DNA from: Escherichia coli
GTDB lineage: Bacteria > Pseudomonadota > Gammaproteobacteria > Enterobacterales > Enterobacteriaceae
NCBI RefSeq assembly: GCF_003018235.1
Contig: NZ_CP027437.1
DNA length: 64,000 nucleotides
Direction: 5' to 3' (one strand)
Below the pieces are notes generated by a model. That model was given only the letters and a program-made list of their open reading frames with translations, made no database searches and was not told the origin of the DNA. The position numbers and the translations under genes were made by a program. Below are positions 3,445 through 19,625 of the stretch, piece after piece (positions within the stretch are counted from its first letter, which is position 1; the number at the start of each line of letters is the position of its first letter).

Positions 3445-3779
3445 TGGTAAGCCGATACGTACCCGATATGGGCGATCTGATTTGGGTTGATTTTGACCCG
3501 ACAAAAGGTAGCGAGCAAGCCGGACATCGTCCGGCTGTTGTCCTGAGTCCGTTCATGTACAACAACAAAACAGGTATGTGTCTGTGTGTTCCTTGTACAA
3601 CGCAATCAAAAGGATATCCGTTCGAAGTTGTTTTATCCGGTCAGGAACGTGATGGCGTAGCGTTAGCTGATCAGGTAAAAAGTATCGCCTGGCGGGCAAG
3701 AGGAGCAACGAAGAAAGGAACGGTTGCCCCAGAGGAATTACAGCTCATTAAAGCCAAAATTAACGTGCTGATTGGGTAG
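3444..3779 (+). CDS. mazF: Endoribonuclease toxin MazF
   Basis: 111-aa [25 protein letters not shown]..., PemK/MazF family. Confidence 0.95.
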   Translation: MVSRYVPDMGDLIWVDFDPTKGSEQAGHRPAVVLSPFMYNNKTGMCLCVPCTTQSKGYPFEVVLSGQERDGVALADQVKSIAWRARGATKKGTVAPEELQLIKAKINVLIG

Positions 3780-3850
3780 GTGTTACTAACTCACTTCTAT
3801 TCTGGTCACAGGTTTCCACCTGACAGACCCGCAATTTTCAGGACATTCTA

Positions 3851-4642
3851 ATGAATCAAATCGACCGTTTGCTCACTATTATGCAGCGCCTGCGCGACCC
3901 GGAAAACGGCTGCCCGTGGGATAAAGAGCAGACATTTGCCACCATTGCACCTTACACCCTTGAAGAAACCTACGAAGTGCTGGACGCTATTGCCCGTGAA
4001 GATTTTGACGATCTGCGCGGTGAACTCGGCGATCTACTGTTCCAGGTGGTTTTTTACGCACAAATGGCCCAGGAAGAAGGGCGCTTTGATTTTAATGATA
4101 TTTGCGCCGCGATTAGCGATAAATTAGAACGTCGCCATCCGCATGTTTTTGCTGACAGTTCTGCCGAAAACAGTAGTGAAGTGCTTGCCCGTTGGGAGCA
4201 AATCAAAACCGAAGAGCGCGCGCAGAAAGCGCAGCATTCGGCGCTGGACGATATTCCTCGTAGTTTACCAGCCTTAATGCGTGCACAAAAAATCCAGAAA
4301 CGTTGCGCCAACGTTGGTTTTGACTGGACGACGCTTGGTCCGGTAGTCGATAAAGTCTACGAAGAGATCGACGAGGTGATGTACGAGGCACGGCAGGCTG
4401 TTATCGACCAGGCTAAACTGGAGGAGGAAATGGGCGACCTGCTGTTTGCCACGGTCAATCTGGCTCGTCATTTAGGGACAAAAGCGGAAATCGCATTGCA
4501 AAAAGCGAACGAAAAATTCGAGCGTCGTTTTCGCGAAGTGGAGCGTATTGTTGCCGCGCGTGGACTGGAAATGACAGGTGTTGACCTCGAAACAATGGAA
4601 GAAGTCTGGCAACAGGTAAAACGGCAGGAAATTGATCTCTAA
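3851..4642 (+). CDS. mazG: Nucleoside triphosphate pyrophosphohydrolase MazG
   Basis: 263-aa ORF, MazG NTP-PPase family; downstream of mazEF. Confidence 0.93.
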   Translation: MNQIDRLLTIMQRLRDPENGCPWDKEQTFATIAPYTLEETYEVLDAIAREDFDDLRGELGDLLFQVVFYAQMAQEEGRFDFNDICAAISDKLERRHPHVFADSSAENSSEVLARWEQIKTEERAQKAQHSALDDIPRSLPALMRAQKIQKRCANVGFDWTTLGPVVDKVYEEIDEVMYEARQAVIDQAKLEEEMGDLLFATVNLARHLGTKAEIALQKANEKFERRFREVERIVAARGLEMTGVDLETMEEVWQQVKRQEIDL

Positions 4643-4655
4643 GGGAATTACGTGG

Positions 4656-4697
4656 TCAAGCGCGATTTGTGTCATTTTTTAAATGACAAGCGCTTGA
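4656..4697 (+). repeat. Inverted repeat / stem-loop in the mazG-pyrG spacer (possible mazG terminator or pyrG leader element)
   Basis: tcaagcgc...tgtcattt ttt aaatgaca...gcgcttga, nested inverted repeat; no clean T-tract. Confidence 0.3.
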
Positions 4698-4784
4698 TTT
4701 GCGTCAAAAACATTTACCCCAAAGGGGCTATTTTCTCACTCCTGATTTCAATAGTGCGCTGGCGAAGAGGAGGGATAATGAAAG

Positions 4785-4814
4785 TTTGTGGCACAGGTCA
4801 TGTTCGGGTATACT
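4785..4814 (+). promoter_or_regulatory. Candidate sigma70 promoter for pyrG
   Basis: -10-like tatact at 4809-4814 with weak -35 tttgtg about 18 bp upstream; about 55 bp before the pyrG start. Confidence 0.3.
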
Positions 4815-4854
4815 GCTTTCCCGTCCTGGTTATTCCATCGTCTTTTCAACCTAA

Positions 4855-6507
<1,653 letters not shown>

Positions 6508-9118: not shown

Positions 9119-9790
9119 ATGCAGTACCCGATTAACGAGATGTTCCAGACCCTGCAAGGTGAGGGTTACTTTACCGGCGTCCCCGCTATTTTTATTCGTT
9201 TACAGGGATGCCCGGTCGGCTGTGCCTGGTGCGACACCAAACACACATGGGAAAAGCTTGAGGATCGGGAAGTTTCCCTTTTCAGCATTCTGGGTAAAAC
9301 GAAAGAGAGTGATAAGTGGGGAGCAGCAAGCAGTGAAGACTTACTCGCAGTCATCGGTCGTCAGGGATACACCGCGCGTCACGTGGTGATTACGGGTGGT
9401 GAGCCTTGCATTCATGATTTGCTACCACTGACTGATCTGCTCGAAAAGAACGGTTTTAGCTGCCAGATCGAAACCAGTGGTACTCATGAGGTACGCTGCA
9501 CACCGAATACCTGGGTTACCGTATCACCAAAGCTGAACATGCGCGGCGGCTATGAAGTGTTGTCACAGGCACTGGAGCGAGCCAACGAAATCAAGCATCC
9601 AGTGGGACGCGTACGTGATATTGAAGCACTGGATGAACTTTTGGCGACGCTGACCGATGATAAACCGCGAGTCATTGCACTGCAGCCGATTAGCCAAAAG
9701 GATGATGCCACACGATTGTGCATTGAAACCTGCATTGCGCGTAATTGGCGTTTGTCGATGCAAACACATAAATATCTAAATATTGCCTGA
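9119..9790 (+). CDS. queE: 7-carboxy-7-deazaguanine synthase (radical SAM), queuosine biosynthesis
   Basis: 223-aa ORF with CPVGCAWCDTKH radical-SAM cysteine motif. Confidence 0.93.
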   Translation: MQYPINEMFQTLQGEGYFTGVPAIFIRLQGCPVGCAWCDTKHTWEKLEDREVSLFSILGKTKESDKWGAASSEDLLAVIGRQGYTARHVVITGGEPCIHDLLPLTDLLEKNGFSCQIETSGTHEVRCTPNTWVTVSPKLNMRGGYEVLSQALERANEIKHPVGRVRDIEALDELLATLTDDKPRVIALQPISQKDDATRLCIETCIARNWRLSMQTHKYLNIA

Positions 9791-9999
9791 TTAAACATTT
9801 ATAAGCGTTATAAATGGGTGGAACCTGTAAAGATTTCTACTCATTTATATTGTTTGTCGCCTCTGAAAACTCCTCCATTTTACCCATCCAGGGCTAATCA
9901 TTAGCATTCTCTACAAATTCTGCGGCATTAATTTTTCGCTGGAGTGAAAATTATTGCGGTAAAGTTTGGTAGATTTTAGTCGGTATAGGATTACTTTAA

Positions 10000-10128
10000 A
10001 TATTTAGCTTTTCAATCAATGAATTAAGTGCTCTTTAACATAATGGATGTGTTGTTTGTGTGATACTGTAAAGTTGGTAGATTGTGACTGGCTTAAAAAA
10101 TCATTAATTAATAATAGGTTATGTTTAG
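10000..10128 (+). promoter_or_regulatory. AT-rich CRISPR leader (approximate bounds)
   Basis: AT-rich non-coding stretch abutting the first, leader-proximal repeat; the degenerate repeat is at the opposite end of the array. Confidence 0.5.
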
Positions 10129-10400
10129 AGAGTTCCCCGCGCGAGCGGGGATAAACCGGCCGTCGCCGGATCAGCCTGGCTATGCCAGCAGAGTTCCCCG
10201 CGCCAGCGGGGATAAACCGGACGAACAAAATAAAAACCAACTGAATGATGCGAGTTCCCCGCGCCAGCGGGGATAAACCGCGAACCCTTGAACCGATAAG
10301 GGCGCTGTTTTGGAGTTCCCCGCGCCAGCGGGGATAAACCGGATAGGTGTTACACATATGACCTGGCACTGGCGAGTTTCCCGCGCCAGCGGGGATAACC
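10129..10400 (+). CRISPR. Type I-E-style CRISPR array, 5 repeats and 4 spacers
   Basis: 29-nt repeat gagttccccgcgccagcggggataaaccg at 10129 (variant cgcgag), 10190, 10251, 10312, plus degenerate terminal repeat at 10373-10400; four 32-nt spacers at 10158-10189, 10219-10250, 10280-10311, 10341-10372. Confidence 0.95.
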
Positions 10401-10447
10401 ATTCAGGTATGTTCAGGCCGGGCAGTTTCCCGCCCGGCCTTCCTCAC

Positions 10448-11925
10448 TTACGCATTCGACCAGCTCTGGATCGAATCCGCATTCCCCAATTCCCCATGCA
10501 TCACTTCATACGATTTTTTCAGGATTACATCAGTATGTTTGGTTAACTCCTTGAAAATGCTTTTATTCATCGCGTCGTAGCGTTTGGCACTGTTCTCAAC
10601 AGGCATAAAGATATCTTTCACGCGAACCATTTTGTCGACAGCCGTTGCGTAATCCGGGTATAGCCCCAGACCTACCGCCGTATTAATCGCTGCCCCCAGA
10701 CTTGCACAACCATTAATGGCGTTACGGCGTGCCGGAAGGTTGAACACGTCGGCAAAAATCTGCATAAACAGATCGCTGTTCGAACCGCCGCCAGTAATGA
10801 TCACATGCTTTGCAAAGTGATTCATTTCATTACACATATTGTCGTAATTGTTCTTCAGCGTCAGGCCACGCTTTCCAGTATCGAACGATATATCCATGCG
10901 TAATCCATGCTGGAATCAAAGCCAATCATAATCCCGCGTTTGTACGGTTCCCACGGATTGGTCAGCCAGTCCAGCACCGTCATCAGACCATTACAGCCTG
11001 GCGGCACACAAGACGCTTTTTTGTTGAGCAAATCTTCCGGTGAAAGATCCTGTGCTTTGGCATCCTGAATTAACGACTCGCCTAACATGTCGCGTAGCCA
11101 GCTCACCGTCCACATGCCTTTGCGAATACCGTAACCTTCATACAGCAAGGTTTGCGGAATAGAAGACATAATCGGCCAGTACGCTACCGGATCTTTCGGT
11201 AGTAATTTGCCGTTCATCATCAACGCGATGTAAGTGCCAAGAGAAATTACCGCAGTTTCATCATCCAGTAACCCGGCTCCCAGTGCTTCTACCGGTTTAT
11301 CACTGGTGGTACAAACAACCGGCAGCCCAGCCGGGAAATGTGTCGCCAGCGCGGCTTGAGGAGTGATATGCCCAAGAACAGTGCCCGGCATTTGCACATC
11401 AAACAGCATATGACGGGGGATATTAAACTTCTCCATGACTGCGGCATCTTCACTCCATGCCCAGGTCTTATAATCCACCGGCCACTGACCAAAATAGTTG
11501 GCGATATTGTCTTTAAACTCGCCGGTTAAGCGATGCGTCAGATAACCTGAAAAAGAGGTGACATATGCCACGTCAGGATTCGTATGTTCGTAAGGGCGTG
11601 TAACGCGTGCATCCTGCCAGCTAATCAACGGCGCAGCTGGCGTGCCATCGGCTTTCAATAACGCACGGCAGCAACGGATGGATCCCAGACCAATACCGAC
11701 AATATCTTCTTTATTCCCGGCAAACTGACTCATCAAATCGTGACCGGCAAAACATAATGATGCCCATAAATCGTCGTCAGGATGTTCTGCGGTATCGGCA
11801 TCTGGCGTGTGCATCGGCTGCAATAAGCCTTTGCCTTCGCAAACCACATTACCTTCCAGATCATACATCACCACTTTTGTGCTCTGACTTCCGCCATCAA
11901 TCCCTATGATGTATTTTTTCGACAT
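10448..11925 (-). pseudogene. ygcE: FGGY-family sugar kinase gene split by a frameshift (two ORFs overlapping at 10861-10897)
   Basis: N-terminal ORF 10861-11925 ends ...YRSILESVA*; the other frame continues ...LTLKNNYDNM... to 10448; restoring one C in the minus-strand run gtggcc-ctgacg rejoins them into a 492-codon frame. Confidence 0.7.
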
Positions 11926-11951: not shown

Positions 11952-13229
11952 TTACTTGCTGCTAGCCATAGCAGGGGCGCTATCAGCAGTACGAATTTTT
12001 TGGAACAGCAAAAAGGTAAAGACGATCACCATGGCAAGCGCCGCCATGCCCATCAGCCACATATTGCGGTAGGCTTCTGCAGCGGGCAGGGTGTCTTGCC
12101 AGTAGCCGATAATCGGGTAAACGAAGACATCCGGCAGGAATCCAATCACCGAACAAATACCTACCGTGGTGCCCATAATGTAAGACGGTGTTCTCGCTTC
12201 GCCAGGGCAGGCCCAGTACAGCCCGCGTGAGGCGTAACAGGTGAATCCCAGCAGTAAAATCAGGCCAATCCCCATCGCGACCGATTGCGGGTTAGAGTTC
12301 GTGACGAGCAGGGCAGTTAACGCCAGCAAGCCGAGTACGGAAAGGATTTGGATCACGCGGGTAGGGGATTTCACTTTGCTGTAAGTGGTGATAATGCCGC
12401 CAAGCGGACCGCACAGTGCGCGGAAGATTTTGTTGATCACAATCCCCATGTAGCTCGCCGCCACCAGCGACATACCGTACATTTCGGTCAGATAGTTGGT
12501 GGAGTAACTCAGAATGGCGTAGATGGTGAAGACACCAAAAATCACCATGCTGCAATACCAGGTGGTGCTGATGCGCAAAACGGCCAGGATGTCGCTAAGC
12601 TGGAATGACTGTTTTTCTTCGTTATTGGTATTGCGTAGGTTGTTGTTATCGCTAACAAAAAACCAACACAAAATGCCCAGCAGAATGTAAACCACACTAT
12701 AGATAATAATGACCGTTTTCAGGCTGGCGCTGTCATCCGGTGCAAAGCGAGAAAAGACCCACATGGTAAACACCGCCAGCGACATTACACCGACGCCGCG
12801 CAGCCCTTCCATCCAGCCCATAATTTTCCCTTGCTCGCTATGATCGCCCAGCAACGATGCGGCTTTAATCGACACCGACCACAGCATTAAAATCGTCGTT
12901 ATCGCAAAGGCGACCTGAATACAGAGCATTACCCACAGCGGTGGATATGTTGCCATTAACAGACCCAGTAATCCGGTAATGATCATCGCGGAAGTAATCA
13001 TTTTGCGGTGTGAAAATTTATCGGCAATAACGCCGCTGGGGGCATAAAGAATAATAGCCGCAATACCAAAGGTACTCATTATTAAACCTATCTCGGTATT
13101 GCTGAATCCCATAAATTTCGCCATGGGAATTTGATAAATATAACGTAAATAAGCCAGGTCGAAACTAACGCCGCCGCTAAAACTAATTATCGCGAGGGTT
13201 ATCCAACGGCGATATGAGTTGTGTTGCAT
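11952..13229 (-). CDS. yqcE: MFS-family transporter
   Basis: 425-aa ORF with multiple hydrophobic helices; synteny next to ygcE. Confidence 0.85.
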   Translation of the reverse strand: MQHNSYRRWITLAIISFSGGVSFDLAYLRYIYQIPMAKFMGFSNTEIGLIMSTFGIAAIILYAPSGVIADKFSHRKMITSAMIITGLLGLLMATYPPLWVMLCIQVAFAITTILMLWSVSIKAASLLGDHSEQGKIMGWMEGLRGVGVMSLAVFTMWVFSRFAPDDSASLKTVIIIYSVVYILLGILCWFFVSDNNNLRNTNNEEKQSFQLSDILAVLRISTTWYCSMVIFGVFTIYAILSYSTNYLTEMYGMSLVAASYMGIVINKIFRALCGPLGGIITTYSKVKSPTRVIQILSVLGLLALTALLVTNSNPQSVAMGIGLILLLGFTCYASRGLYWACPGEARTPSYIMGTTVGICSVIGFLPDVFVYPIIGYWQDTLPAAEAYRNMWLMGMAALAMVIVFTFLLFQKIRTADSAPAMASSK

Positions 13230-13407
13230 ATCGTATTCCCATTTGTAATAGACAAAAAAAAGAGAAAAGTAAGCCGCCCTTTCAGGTGGATTACTTTTCT
13301 CAGGTCTCTAGTAATTGCAATAAGAAATAACATGGAAAGTAGTGGTGTTGTGTGAGAGTAATCACGCTTCTGCTTTTTAAAATTATTTGACAATTCGAAT
13401 ATCACAC

Positions 13408-13423
13408 TGTGATTACGATCACA
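13408..13423. promoter_or_regulatory. Candidate CRP binding site in the yqcE/ygcW divergent region
   Basis: tgtgattacgatcaca = TGTGA-N6-TCACA, perfect match to both CRP consensus half-sites. Confidence 0.5.
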
Positions 13424-13440
13424 TTAGCGATTATGCCCTT

Positions 13441-13523
13441 ATGATAAAAATTATCTCCAGTTACCAGAGATAATGAGAAAGGTAACTTCCCTCTCGCGGG
13501 GGAAGTTACCTTTCTTTTTTTTT
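13441..13523 (+). promoter_or_regulatory. Attenuator-like leader upstream of ygcW: hairpin, alternative pairing, intrinsic terminator, possible 10-codon leader ORF
   Basis: Hairpin 1 attatctc/gagataat (13450-13474); terminator stem ggtaacttccc/gggaagttacc (13481-13510) followed by a 13-nt T-rich tract (tttc + 9 T, 13511-13523); agttacc in the hairpin-1 loop is complementary to the terminator 5' arm; ORF MIKIISSYQR at 13441-13473. Confidence 0.45.
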
Positions 13524-13547
13524 GCCTTACGGAAATTGGAGCTAACT

Positions 13548-14333
13548 ATGTCAATCGAATCTCTCAATGCGTTCTCAATGGATTTTTTCTCCCTGAAAGG
13601 TAAAACCGCAATTGTTACCGGCGGGAATAGCGGTTTAGGCCAGGCATTTGCCATGGCGCTGGCCAAAGCAGGCGCAAATATCTTTATTCCAAGCTTCGTT
13701 AAAGATAACGGTGAAACAAAGGAAATGATTGAAAAACAGGGTGTTGAGGTGGACTTCATGCAGGTGGATATCACCGCAGAAGGCGCGCCGCAGAAGATAA
13801 TCGCCGCCTGTTGCGAACGTTTCGGTACCGTCGATATTCTGATTAACAATGCCGGTATTTGTAAGCTGAATAAGGTGCTGGACTTCGGTCGTGCCGACTG
13901 GGACCCGATGATTGATGTGAACCTGACCGCCGCATTCGAGTTAAGCTATGAAGCTGCAAAAATTATGATCCCGCAGAAAAGCGGTAAAATCATTAATATC
14001 TGTTCATTATTCTCTTACTTAGGTGGACAATGGTCACCTGCATATTCTGCCACTAAACATGCTCTTGCCGGGTTCACCAAAGCTTATTGTGATGAACTAG
14101 GTCAATATAATATTCAGGTAAATGGTATTGCTCCGGGATATTACGCTACCGATATCACTCTGGCGACCCGTAGTAATCCAGAAACTAACCAGCGCGTTCT
14201 TGATCATATTCCGGCAAACCGTTGGGGCGATACTCAGGATTTAATGGGCGCAGCCGTATTCCTCGCAAGTCCGGCATCGAATTATGTCAACGGACATTTA
14301 TTAGTGGTTGATGGCGGTTATTTAGTGCGCTAA
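13548..14333 (+). CDS. ygcW: Short-chain dehydrogenase/reductase (SDR) family oxidoreductase
   Basis: Start set at MSIESLNAF... (261 aa) with RBS ggag; TGGNSGLG Rossmann motif. Confidence 0.85.
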   Translation: MSIESLNAFSMDFFSLKGKTAIVTGGNSGLGQAFAMALAKAGANIFIPSFVKDNGETKEMIEKQGVEVDFMQVDITAEGAPQKIIAACCERFGTVDILINNAGICKLNKVLDFGRADWDPMIDVNLTAAFELSYEAAKIMIPQKSGKIINICSLFSYLGGQWSPAYSATKHALAGFTKAYCDELGQYNIQVNGIAPGYYATDITLATRSNPETNQRVLDHIPANRWGDTQDLMGAAVFLASPASNYVNGHLLVVDGGYLVR

Positions 14334-18904: not shown

Positions 18905-19015
18905 TGCAGCCGGATGATCCTGCCTACGGTTCTGGGCTGGGGACTTGTAAGCCTGATAAGACGCGTCAAGCGTCGCATCAGGCGCTGAATGTCGGATGTG
19001 GCGTGCAGCCTACAA
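18905..19015. repeat. REP/BIME-type palindromic repeats between convergent ygcQ and ygcP
   Basis: gcctgataagacgcgtcaagcgtcgcatcaggc and cggatgtggcgtgcagcctac-type REP units. Confidence 0.7.
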
Positions 19016-19049: not shown

Positions 19050-19625
19050 TCAAAGCAATTTTTTCGCTAACGTCCAGACCCCGGTATTCGTGGTGGAAAG
19101 CGCCACGACACCTGCGTTAATCGCATTACGCGCATCTTCTTCATCGCACACCAGCCCGCCAGCAATCAGCGGTTGGCGGATTTTCTCCGTTACCCAGCCC
19201 AGCACTTTGGGCATACAGCCAGGCAGGATCTCAATACAATCCGGATTCGATTGCGCAACTTGCTTATCAATGTTGTGAAACGAAATCGAATCAACAATAA
19301 ACAGGCGATGAATACAGAAAAAACCTTCCGCTCTTGCCGCTTTCAGCATTGAGGCTTTGGTACTGATAATGCCGTCCGCCTCGGTCACCAGTTTCAGAAA
19401 CTGAATCACCACTTCTTTGTTCGATGCGCCTTCCAGCAAATCAACATGAATAAAGGCATATTTTCCGGCGTGTTTAATCTTTTTCACGATTTGACTAATG
19501 GTGCAGATATTGCCGTACAACACGGAAATAAACTGGCATTCAGAATCGATTGCCAGTTGCAGGCTGGCATTATCTTTAACGGCAGCAATCACCGGATTCT
19601 GGCGGAGCAGGTGTAAGAGGGGCAT
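19050..19625 (-). CDS. ygcP: GlpP-like antiterminator-family regulatory protein
   Basis: 191-aa ORF; G3P-antiterminator (GlpP) family similarity. Confidence 0.8.
   Translation of the reverse strand: MPLLHLLRQNPVIAAVKDNASLQLAIDSECQFISVLYGNICTISQIVKKIKHAGKYAFIHVDLLEGASNKEVVIQFLKLVTEADGIISTKASMLKAARAEGFFCIHRLFIVDSISFHNIDKQVAQSNPDCIEILPGCMPKVLGWVTEKIRQPLIAGGLVCDEEDARNAINAGVVALSTTNTGVWTLAKKLL

Follow-up and report, generated by a model that had tools for sequence, protein, structure and literature searches.

Back-to-back attenuator leaders at the CRP-dependent ygcW and yqcE promoters of Escherichia coli, and YgcP as their candidate GlpP-type antiterminator

BglG-type regulation is the established Escherichia coli precedent for protein-mediated antitermination of a catabolic operon: in the BglG/SacY systems, with their ribonucleic antiterminator (RAT) elements (E. 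coli bgl, Bacillus subtilis sacB and sacPA), the 5′ arm of the leader terminator is overlapped by a weak 5′ stem-loop, and a protein stabilises this stem-loop. A different regulator family, PF04309, includes GlpP, which acts with glycerol-3-phosphate on B. subtilis glpD, glpFK and glpTQ, and to our knowledge that species is the only one in which a binding site of the family has been investigated. The glpD 5′ untranslated region is sufficient for GlpP- and glycerol-dependent control (PMC9604022), and no defined consensus for the GlpP binding site was found in the literature. The present analysis concerns a 64,000-nucleotide stretch of E. coli DNA, referred to as the window, and within it the 318-bp spacer that separates yqcE (minus strand, start 13229) from ygcW (plus strand, ATG 13548). 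This spacer is a symmetric, mirror-image unit of two back-to-back CRP-dependent promoters, each coupled to its own attenuator leader, and the gene cluster in which it lies encodes a PF04309 protein, YgcP, that is proposed to act on both leaders.

In its RefSeq annotation the yqcE-ygcW spacer carries no feature. Beyond ygcW, the plus strand encodes ygcU, ygcS, ygcR and ygcQ, and the minus-strand neighbours are ygcP, ygcO and ygcN. An initial annotation of the window had read the region upstream of ygcW as a CRP site followed by a leader with conditional read-through, with ygcP as a possible regulator. The core of that reading is retained, in that a terminator that is probably conditional, with an alternative pairing through AGTTACC, does lie behind the CRP site, and ygcP is still the candidate; yet only half of the two-leader unit had been seen, the twin leader before yqcE (minus strand, 13318-13254) and the second CRP site (13351-13366) having been missed. 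The principal features are as follows.

13457 to 13523, plus strand: ygcW leader RNA motif, a full match to covariance model R1 (78.4 bits, E about 1e-13)
13459 to 13465, plus strand: segment A (AGUUACC), 5′ strand of the predicted antiterminator helix, pairing with 13481-13487
13466 to 13480, plus strand: purine-rich loop AGAGAUAAUGAGAAA, the proposed YgcP recognition element, the 3′ part of which is the base of the terminator 5′ arm
13481 to 13487, plus strand: segment B (GGUAACU), common to the antiterminator helix and the terminator 5′ arm
13475 to 13516, plus strand: intrinsic terminator hairpin from the terminator scan, with 19 pairs, a 4-nt loop and a fold energy of -31.2 kcal/mol
13511 to 13523, plus strand: U-rich tract, with a Term-seq 3′ end at 13510
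13254 to 13318, minus strand: yqcE leader RNA motif, the twin (R1, 77.0 bits), with segment A at 13315-13310, loop at 13309-13296 and segment B at 13295-13290
13301 to 13262, minus strand: yqcE leader terminator, followed by a U run at 13261-13254
13408 to 13423, no strand assigned: CRP site 1, TGTGAttacgaTCACA, a perfect consensus centred at 13415.5 and serving the ygcW promoter
13351 to 13366, no strand assigned: CRP site 2, TGTGAgagtaaTCACG, a predicted, conserved site with one mismatch, centred at 13358.5 and serving the yqcE promoter
13442 to 13450, plus strand: extended -10-like element TGaTAAAAA of the putative class II ygcW promoter, with a predicted start at about 13457-13459
13324 to 13332, minus strand: extended -10-like element TGtTATTTC of the putative yqcE promoter, with a predicted start at about 13316-13318
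19050 to 19625, minus strand: ygcP, encoding the GlpP-family protein proposed to act on both leaders (full-length match to PF04309)

The leader motif is 65-67 nt long and has two copies in the window, one before ygcW on the plus strand and one before yqcE on the minus strand; a scan of all 64 kb with R1 recovered only these. A third copy was looked for before ygcN, which follows queD after a short spacer, and none was found. Both leaders contain the element TTACYAGAGA-N2-4-TGAGAAARGTAAY, and the 12-nt core GAGAAARGTAAY is matched six times in the window, where 0.57 matches are expected. The yqcE leader, on the minus strand, reads GAGAAAAGTAA...TTACTTTTCTC and continues into eight T's that end 24 nt before the yqcE ATG. 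In the ygcW leader, the hairpin ggtaacttccc/gggaagttacc that had been described at 13481-13510 is present and in fact extends to 19 pairs (13475-13516), and the T-rich tract reported to follow it (13511-13523) is likewise there; this tract does end close to ygcW, but the start codon begins at 13548 rather than 13549, which makes the distance 24 nt and not 25. The ygcW leader folds at -45.4 kcal/mol, against -25.1 +/- 3.5 kcal/mol for shuffled sequences (z = -5.8), the yqcE leader has a z of -4.2, and the terminator scan found eight terminator-like sites where about one was expected. Searching 12800-14000 against Rfam 15 with cmscan at E values up to 10 returned chance-level matches only, the best of which scored 26 bits against a gathering score of 90; PyrG_leader reached 20.8 bits against a gathering score of 65.

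Segment B can be claimed either by the terminator or by segment A, and the two folds differ widely in strength. For the ygcW leader, the predicted energies are -6.7 kcal/mol for the nascent A:B hairpin, -31.2 kcal/mol for the terminator fold and -15.6 kcal/mol for the fold in which A:B is forced, and the corresponding values for the yqcE leader are -1.4, -20.7 and -6.5 kcal/mol. The alternative fold is thus, on its own, about 14-16 kcal/mol weaker than the terminator fold, and when A:B is forced the hairpin that remains no longer adjoins the U run. These two properties together suggest that termination is the default and that a factor is needed to hold A:B in place. The initial annotation had correctly recognised AGTTACC as the exact complement of GGTAACT (13459-13465 with 13481-13487), although this segment is not, as it had supposed, the loop of a conserved first hairpin.

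In layout, the two leaders resemble that of glpD. The glpD leader consists of GGUC, the loop CUGAGAUGAGGAGA and GACC, and runs into a terminator of -40 kcal/mol; its loop is GA-rich and 14 nt long, and the 3′ part of the loop starts the terminator arm. The ygcW leader is composed of AGUUACC, the loop AGAGAUAAUGAGAAA and GGUAACU, and the yqcE leader of AUUACU, the loop AGAGACCUGAGAAA and AGUAAU. The same arrangement is seen at a locus of the glpP-glpA/D type (L082), with CUGCUA, the loop GAGAGAUGAGAGUA, UAGCGG and a terminator, and in a leader adjacent to another PF04309 gene (L084), with GGG, the loop UGUGAGAGUGAGAGAAU, CCCC and a terminator. R1 matches the L082 leader weakly (15.9 bits, E 0.12). 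Among the five PF04309 representatives checked, the other three (L085, L087 and L083) have no obvious adjacent target leader. L083 is a GC-rich metagenomic contig in which two PF04309 genes lie close together (3512-5558) within a glycerol/dihydroxyacetone cluster encoding an FGGY kinase, a DAO-type dehydrogenase and Dak, with no clear GA-rich leader.

The parallels with the GlpP system thus include the regulator family, a promoter followed directly by an intrinsic terminator within the 5′ leader, a short helix that closes a purine-rich loop of about 14 nt into the terminator 5′ arm, and the presence of a copy at each of several operons of one pathway, in which an FGGY kinase of the regulon could make the effector. 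There are also differences. The ygc hosts are proteobacterial as well as Firmicutes, and the regulon is not a glp regulon but comprises a short-chain dehydrogenase/reductase (SDR), a flavin adenine dinucleotide (FAD) oxidase, electron-transfer flavoprotein (ETF) components, an FGGY kinase, and major facilitator superfamily (MFS), BCCT or Opu-type transporters. Furthermore, the ygc helix is longer (6-7 bp) and begins at or within about 2 nt of the predicted start, whereas the glpD helix begins about 14 nt downstream; the ygc ligand is probably not glycerol-3-phosphate; and initiation in enteric bacteria is under CRP. By this analogy, the ygc leaders most likely belong with GlpP-type antitermination, a placement in which both RNA binding and the effector are presumed.

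The likeness to the BglG/SacY systems lies in the weak 5′ stem-loop overlapping the terminator arm. There, however, the protein is of the CAT-PRD type rather than PF04309, the RNA sequence and layout differ, and control is by phosphorylation through the phosphotransferase system (PTS) rather than by a small-molecule ligand; the RefSeq annotation of the ygc cluster contains no CAT-PRD antiterminator gene. HutP and TRAP, which bind repeated NAG or GAG triplets, recall the single-stranded AGAG...GAGAAA purines beside the terminator and the use of recognition to select a fold, yet this is a resemblance only: the protein folds differ, the number and spacing of the repeats do not match, and TRAP promotes termination.

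RNA 3′ ends have been detected at both leaders in vivo. Supplementary file 3 of Adams et al. 2021 (PMC7815308; strain MG1655, lysogeny broth (LB), optical density (OD) 0.4) holds two 3′ ends at these positions.

2900311 of MG1655, minus strand: ygcW-leader 3′ end, 38 nt upstream of the start codon, with 40,640 reads, a Rho score of 0.50 and an intrinsic terminator score of 15.8
2900556 of MG1655, plus strand: yqcE-leader 3′ end, 36 nt upstream of the start codon, with 1,557 reads, a Rho score of 0.61 and an intrinsic terminator score of 11.4

Transferred through the MG1655 coordinates, the first end falls at 13510 of the window, on the last base of GGGAAGUUACC, and the second at 13265, inside CUUUUCUC. 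Both are classed as orphan ends, carry no 'characterised element' note and are not Rho-dependent. A search of Term-seq data for an end near 13523 had been suggested for the ygcW leader, and the strong 3′ end at the hairpin in these published data supports termination there. The leaders described here thereby explain two abundant 'orphan' Term-seq 3′ ends of K-12. The TERMITe supplements hold no entry for the ygcW or yqcE genes.

The conservation of the leaders was followed in 80 loci encoding YgcW relatives, taken from species-representative genomes. A simple pattern yielded 112 copies, of which 98 were distinct, and covariance model R1 was built from these. R1 in turn gave 116 full-length matches, scoring 40-81 bits, in Enterobacterales and Firmicutes, with two copies per locus in enterobacteria and one to three in Firmicutes. 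Among complete E. coli genomes, 5063 of 5426 carry the ygcW leader, at two places per genome. Across Enterobacterales this leader is nearly invariant from CAGTTAC onward, while the sequence just 5′ of it is variable. The same motif precedes ygcW in the Firmicutes Sporomusa, Cohnella, Geosporobacter and Dethiosulfatibacter and in several metagenome-assembled genomes, where it directly follows TTGACA-17-TATAAT-like promoters whose -10 hexamer ends 6-9 nt before segment A. Extra Firmicutes copies are found inside the operon before ygcU, between ygcE and ygcU, or before BCCT-type transporters. Several of these (L140 6231-6292; L144 1424-1485; L054, L059, L061, L064 and L080) precede BCCT transporters and an OpuC-like ATP-binding cassette (ABC) transporter of the betaine/choline type, and one Firmicutes copy stands before an operon that encodes an MttB-family methyltransferase, a PanB-like enzyme and an Opu-type transporter.

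Both helices show compensatory change. In alignment A3 (101 distinct sequences), the A:B helix, which was absent from the model that produced the alignment, corresponds to the pairing of columns 3-9 with 29-35, or of 13459-13465 with 13481-13487 in the window. Its cells are paired in 93.8% of cases, against at most 54% in slid controls, and compensatory changes occur at four pairs: G-C in 65 sequences with A-U in 33, U-A in 71 with C-G in 22, and one sequence each at two more; the cells counted in this way are not independent events. These switches recur in separate lineages: they distinguish the enteric yqcE leaders from those of Serratia-like genera and are also seen in several Firmicutes and in the single sequences L024 and L061. 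The penultimate base of B (C13486 in the window) covaries with the second base of A, and in 69 of the 101 sequences it is not paired with its terminator partner; in Firmicutes, the TAA of B sits in an internal loop of the terminator. Since a B position thus covaries with A though it is often unpaired in the terminator, the A:B helix is selected in its own right. The terminator itself is paired in 90.2% of cells, against 55-68% in slid controls, and 11 of its 17 pairs have changed on both sides. Many of its pairs persist only as G-U, with counts of 27 for the basal pair and of 53 and 15 for two others, so that the sense-strand RNA, rather than a DNA palindrome, is what is constrained. Judged from this comparative record, both folds are under selection.

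Some bases never change: in the 101 distinct sequences, AGAG keeps its two G's, GAGAAA its GAG, and B its GU, and the three A's that follow the GAG are nearly invariant, a pattern of loop and 5′-arm purines that would fit a sequence-specific protein contact. When the conservation of the two hairpins and of the complementary segment was examined, as the initial annotation had advised, the terminator hairpin and the A:B complement proved to be kept and covarying, whereas its first hairpin was not kept. One locus departs from the two-leader arrangement: in Limnobaculum eriocheiris (L031 3094-3167), the yqcE-ygcW spacer is only about 130 nt long and contains a single hairpin with A and T runs on its two sides, as if two inverted leaders had recombined and both promoters had been lost; a related species (L030) has two leaders with identical hairpins.

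The candidate for the factor that holds A:B is YgcP. It matches PF04309 (G3P_antiterm) with an E value of 2e-62 over residues 12-184, covering all 173 model positions, and Listeria GlpP (PDB 3KTS) with an E value of 8e-28, and ygcP is the only regulator-like gene in the RefSeq annotation of the cluster. No paper on the function of the ygc/yqc cluster or on YgcP was found in the literature. The motif and ygcP occur together. Outside Enterobacterales, 11 loci have both YgcP and the motif and 15 have neither, with no locus having only one of them (Fisher 1.3e-7, a value that ignores phylogeny), and the 15 loci without ygcP still carry ygcW/ygcE/ygcU genes. Among Enterobacterales-like loci, 44 have both, eight have neither, none has YgcP without the motif, and three have the motif without YgcP; two of these discordant loci are truncated contigs, and the third is Serratia microhaemolytica, in which a YgcP homologue lies on another contig. 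In all, 55 of the 58 motif-bearing loci that were fetched encode a YgcP homologue. When metagenomes were scanned with the motif as seed, every complete motif lay either on a contig with ygc genes or on one known to carry ygcP. The pattern scan of metagenomes returned mostly E. coli-like contigs, together with nine exact pattern matches without ygc genes, none of them a full model match, which were set aside as partial or chance matches.

Both leaders lie behind CRP sites. The perfect CRP site announced at 13408-13423 is there, and its sequence is TGTGAttacgaTCACA. It was already known before this analysis, having been predicted by PhyloScan in 2007 (PMC1794230), found to be bound in vivo in enterotoxigenic E. 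coli (ETEC) by chromatin immunoprecipitation sequencing (ChIP-seq) (PMC4287617), and found to be bound in vitro with a Kd of about 1.7 nM (PMC12871828); a transcriptome study lists yqcE-ygcE as Crp-activated (PMC8085971). Site 1 is kept 42.5-44.5 nt from segment A in 45 of 47 distinct enterobacterial sequences, and site 2 is kept in 45 of 45, at 41.5-43.5 nt from the A segment of the yqcE leader. In the window, the centre of site 1 is 43.5 nt from A13459, that of site 2 is 42.5 nt from A13316, and the two centres are 57 bp apart. Between each CRP site and its leader, an (A/G)TG(C/T)TA element, which in the yqcE version reads aTG(t/c)TA(t/c)T, is kept at a fixed position across genera. From the CRP spacing and the position of this element, we infer that both promoters are class II-like, with starts 0-2 nt before segment A; in MG1655, the predicted starts would fall at 2900362-2900364 for ygcW and at 2900503-2900505 for yqcE. 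They share with class II CRP promoters (galP1, melAB-type) a consensus or near-consensus site about 41.5-43.5 nt upstream of the putative start, an extended -10-like TG and no evident -35, and differ from them in being placed back to back, each with an attenuator, and in having starts that are here deduced. The supplements of Cappable-seq and SMRT-Cappable-seq (single-molecule real-time) contain no entry for the ygcW-yqcE region. The promoters proposed by Ishihama from systematic evolution of ligands by exponential enrichment (SELEX), TTGACA-16-TGTGAT for ygcW and TTCTCA-18-GATAAT for yqcE, were not adopted, because both are no more than matches to the consensus and the TTGACA is not kept outside Escherichia. 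A perfect 13-nt palindrome, ATCACACTGTGAT, at 13401-13413 overlaps the left half of CRP site 1 and creates a third TCACA/TGTGA arrangement; it is found only in some Escherichia (the window, K-12 and L002), and its left arm differs in other Escherichia and in other genera.

The account that we regard as probable is ligand-dependent antitermination by YgcP, layered on CRP-activated initiation, in which the start sites, the binding, the ligand and the conditional read-through are all deduced. In this mechanism, cAMP-CRP would set initiation at both promoters, and each transcript would start within about 0-2 nt of the conserved leader. By default, the long hairpin and its U run would halt RNA polymerase upstream of the coding region. 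In the alternative fold, segment A, made up of the first 6-7 nucleotides of the transcript, could pair with B at the start of the terminator 5′ arm, closing a 14-15-nt purine-rich loop (AGAG-N3-5-GAGAAA) that holds the rest of that arm; ligand-carrying YgcP would bind and lock this 5′ stem-loop, so that the terminator would be blocked. Read-through would then give transcription of ygcWUSRQ and of yqcE-ygcE, with YgcP setting elongation. The ligand is probably not glycerol-3-phosphate but a phosphorylated compound made by the FGGY kinase YgcE; the absence of glp genes, the cluster's own FGGY kinase and the betaine/choline-type transporters of the Firmicutes argue for such a different ligand. 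The design would be compact and symmetric, with global carbon status acting on initiation and a pathway-specific signal acting on elongation.

Several points weigh against this account. With A:B alone, a pseudoknot could still form between the GAGAAA strand and the 3′ arm, and the blocking of termination therefore depends on an assumed contact between the protein and the loop. Compared by sequence, the likeness of the ygc leaders to glpD is architectural and does not amount to a significant match. The 5′ end of the leader is placed by promoter geometry and by the point at which conservation sets in. The Term-seq 3′ ends fall 4-5 nt short of the U runs, an offset that may reflect 3′ trimming of the terminated RNA by exonucleases. 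The loci were chosen by their homology to YgcW, and phylogenetically the counts of co-occurrence are not independent. Finally, the effect of YgcP on the two leaders and operons is a proposal that presumes RNA binding by the protein.

Of the three mechanisms that the initial annotation had offered, the protein antiterminator is favoured by the co-occurrence with ygcP and by the glpD-like layout, while a riboswitch and leader-peptide attenuation are disfavoured. A small riboswitch, in which the 5′ stem-loop itself binds a metabolite and the RNA-binding factor is not YgcP, would account for a conserved RNA element with a terminator/antiterminator pair before metabolic genes, and some aptamers known to us, such as preQ1-I, are equally small. 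No Rfam family is matched, however, even at E values up to 10, and what is conserved amounts to one helix and its purine-rich loop, as in the glpD leader, which is bound by a protein. Moreover, the motif is present in none of the 15 non-enterobacterial ygcW/ygcE/ygcU clusters without ygcP, but in 11 of 11 with it; because a metabolite sensor should follow the pathway, and the motif instead tracks ygcP, a riboswitch is quite unlikely. The abundance of the orphan Term-seq 3′ ends in LB (40,640 reads at the ygcW leader), together with a stable hairpin and U tail typical of small RNAs, could also be taken to mean that the hairpins are constitutive, leaky attenuators whose short transcripts are functional, for example as trans-acting small RNAs, with no dedicated antiterminator. 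This would leave unexplained the covarying A:B helix that competes with the terminator, the strict link to ygcP and the intra-operon copies of the Firmicutes between ygcE and ygcU, and we consider it unlikely, although a dual role as attenuator and small RNA may exist.

Two further explanations concern elements of the ygcW leader region that were judged to be non-functional, or the spacer as DNA. The elements in question, with the translation start of ygcW, are the following.

13450 to 13474, plus strand: first hairpin of the initial annotation, with arms ATTATCTC (13450-13457) and GAGATAAT (13467-13474), judged non-functional
13441 to 13473, plus strand: 10-codon open reading frame (ORF) MIKIISSYQR of the initial annotation, judged non-functional
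13538 to 13550, plus strand: ygcW Shine-Dalgarno sequence GGAG (13538-13541) and start codon (13548-13550), read from the sequence and in agreement with the RefSeq start

The first hairpin does not withstand comparison as a feature: it has eight of eight pairs in Escherichia only and one to six of eight in other genera, and its 5′ arm is located in the interval from the -10-like element to the putative start, probably as part of the promoter. As for the ORF, its existence, its overlap with segment A and the presence of a similar 10-11-codon ORF in 24 of 46 distinct enterobacterial leaders could suggest ribosome-mediated attenuation through MIKIISSYQR. Yet the ORF begins inside the conserved -10-like element, the TG of which forms its start codon, upstream of the deduced transcription start, and it is thus probably not transcribed; it also lacks a Shine-Dalgarno sequence or other ribosome-binding site, its conserved codons are merely those of the RNA motif, its counterparts in other genera range from 3 to 50 codons, and the Firmicutes copies, directly behind their promoters, leave no room for an ORF. 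Attenuation of this kind is accordingly improbable in the extreme. That the palindromes act as DNA, as repressor operators or bidirectional insulators, is suggested by the near-palindromic hairpins in a divergent promoter region and by weak R1 matches on the reverse strand. Pairs kept only as G-U, however, are C-A mismatches on the other strand and break the DNA symmetry, only the sense strand keeps the asymmetric A segment and the U run, and RNA 3′ ends are seen in vivo; a DNA role is very improbable. In the same stretch, an ATG at 13473, in the leader loop, is in frame with ygcW and open through the terminator, extending the gene by 13473-13547 to an ORF of 286 codons. Of the 43 leaders with this ATG, only 12 keep the extension in frame and open, and it is probably a coincidence, but the ATG could mislead gene callers.

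The leaders provide the first comparative definition of an RNA target of the PF04309 family, with 116 instances, two covarying alternative helices, an invariant purine core and no matching Rfam model. A broader reading, which we advance tentatively and at somewhat less than even chances, is that the leader and YgcP form an undescribed cross-phylum RNA-protein switch, that PF04309 proteins in general, also at the B. subtilis glp leaders, recognise a purine-rich loop of about 14 nt which a short helix closes near the 5′ end of the transcript, that the YgcP ligand is not glycerol-3-phosphate and derives from YgcE, and that the regulon degrades an as yet unnamed compound. Under this reading, E. 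coli K-12 would possess a second class of protein-dependent antitermination besides BglG. The ygc substrate may be of the quaternary-ammonium or polyol type, because the Firmicutes copies precede BCCT and Opu-type transporters and an MttB-like methyltransferase. Beside this hint, ygcQRNO are also genes of the ETF and ETF-quinone oxidoreductase (ETF-QO) type. Few parts of the E. coli K-12 chromosome are as poorly understood as the ygc/yqc cluster, which would gain a testable on/off switch. A YgcP-responsive cis element would offer a route to the pathway, in that a reporter screen could reveal the inducer, and the ligand of YgcP would name an intermediate.

Other features of the window include the kinase gene itself. 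In this strain, ygcE (minus strand, 10448-11925) is split into ORFs of 354 and 149 amino acids by a frame shift that arises, relative to K-12, from a 1-nt deletion at about 10865, GTGGCGCTG to GTGGC-CTG. If the deletion is real, the FGGY kinase gene of the cluster is a pseudogene here; alternatively, the deletion is a sequencing error. K-12 has an annotated array of clustered regularly interspaced short palindromic repeats (CRISPR) between queE and ygcE (L001 5185-5578); the corresponding spacer of about 650 nt in the window (9790-10448) contains no tandem repeats, and the array is absent from this strain. Between the convergent genes ygcQ and ygcP, an imperfect palindrome, gcctgataagacgcgtcaagcgtcgcatcaggcg, which resembles repetitive extragenic palindromic (REP) sequences and bacterial interspersed mosaic elements (BIME), is located at 18940-19000.

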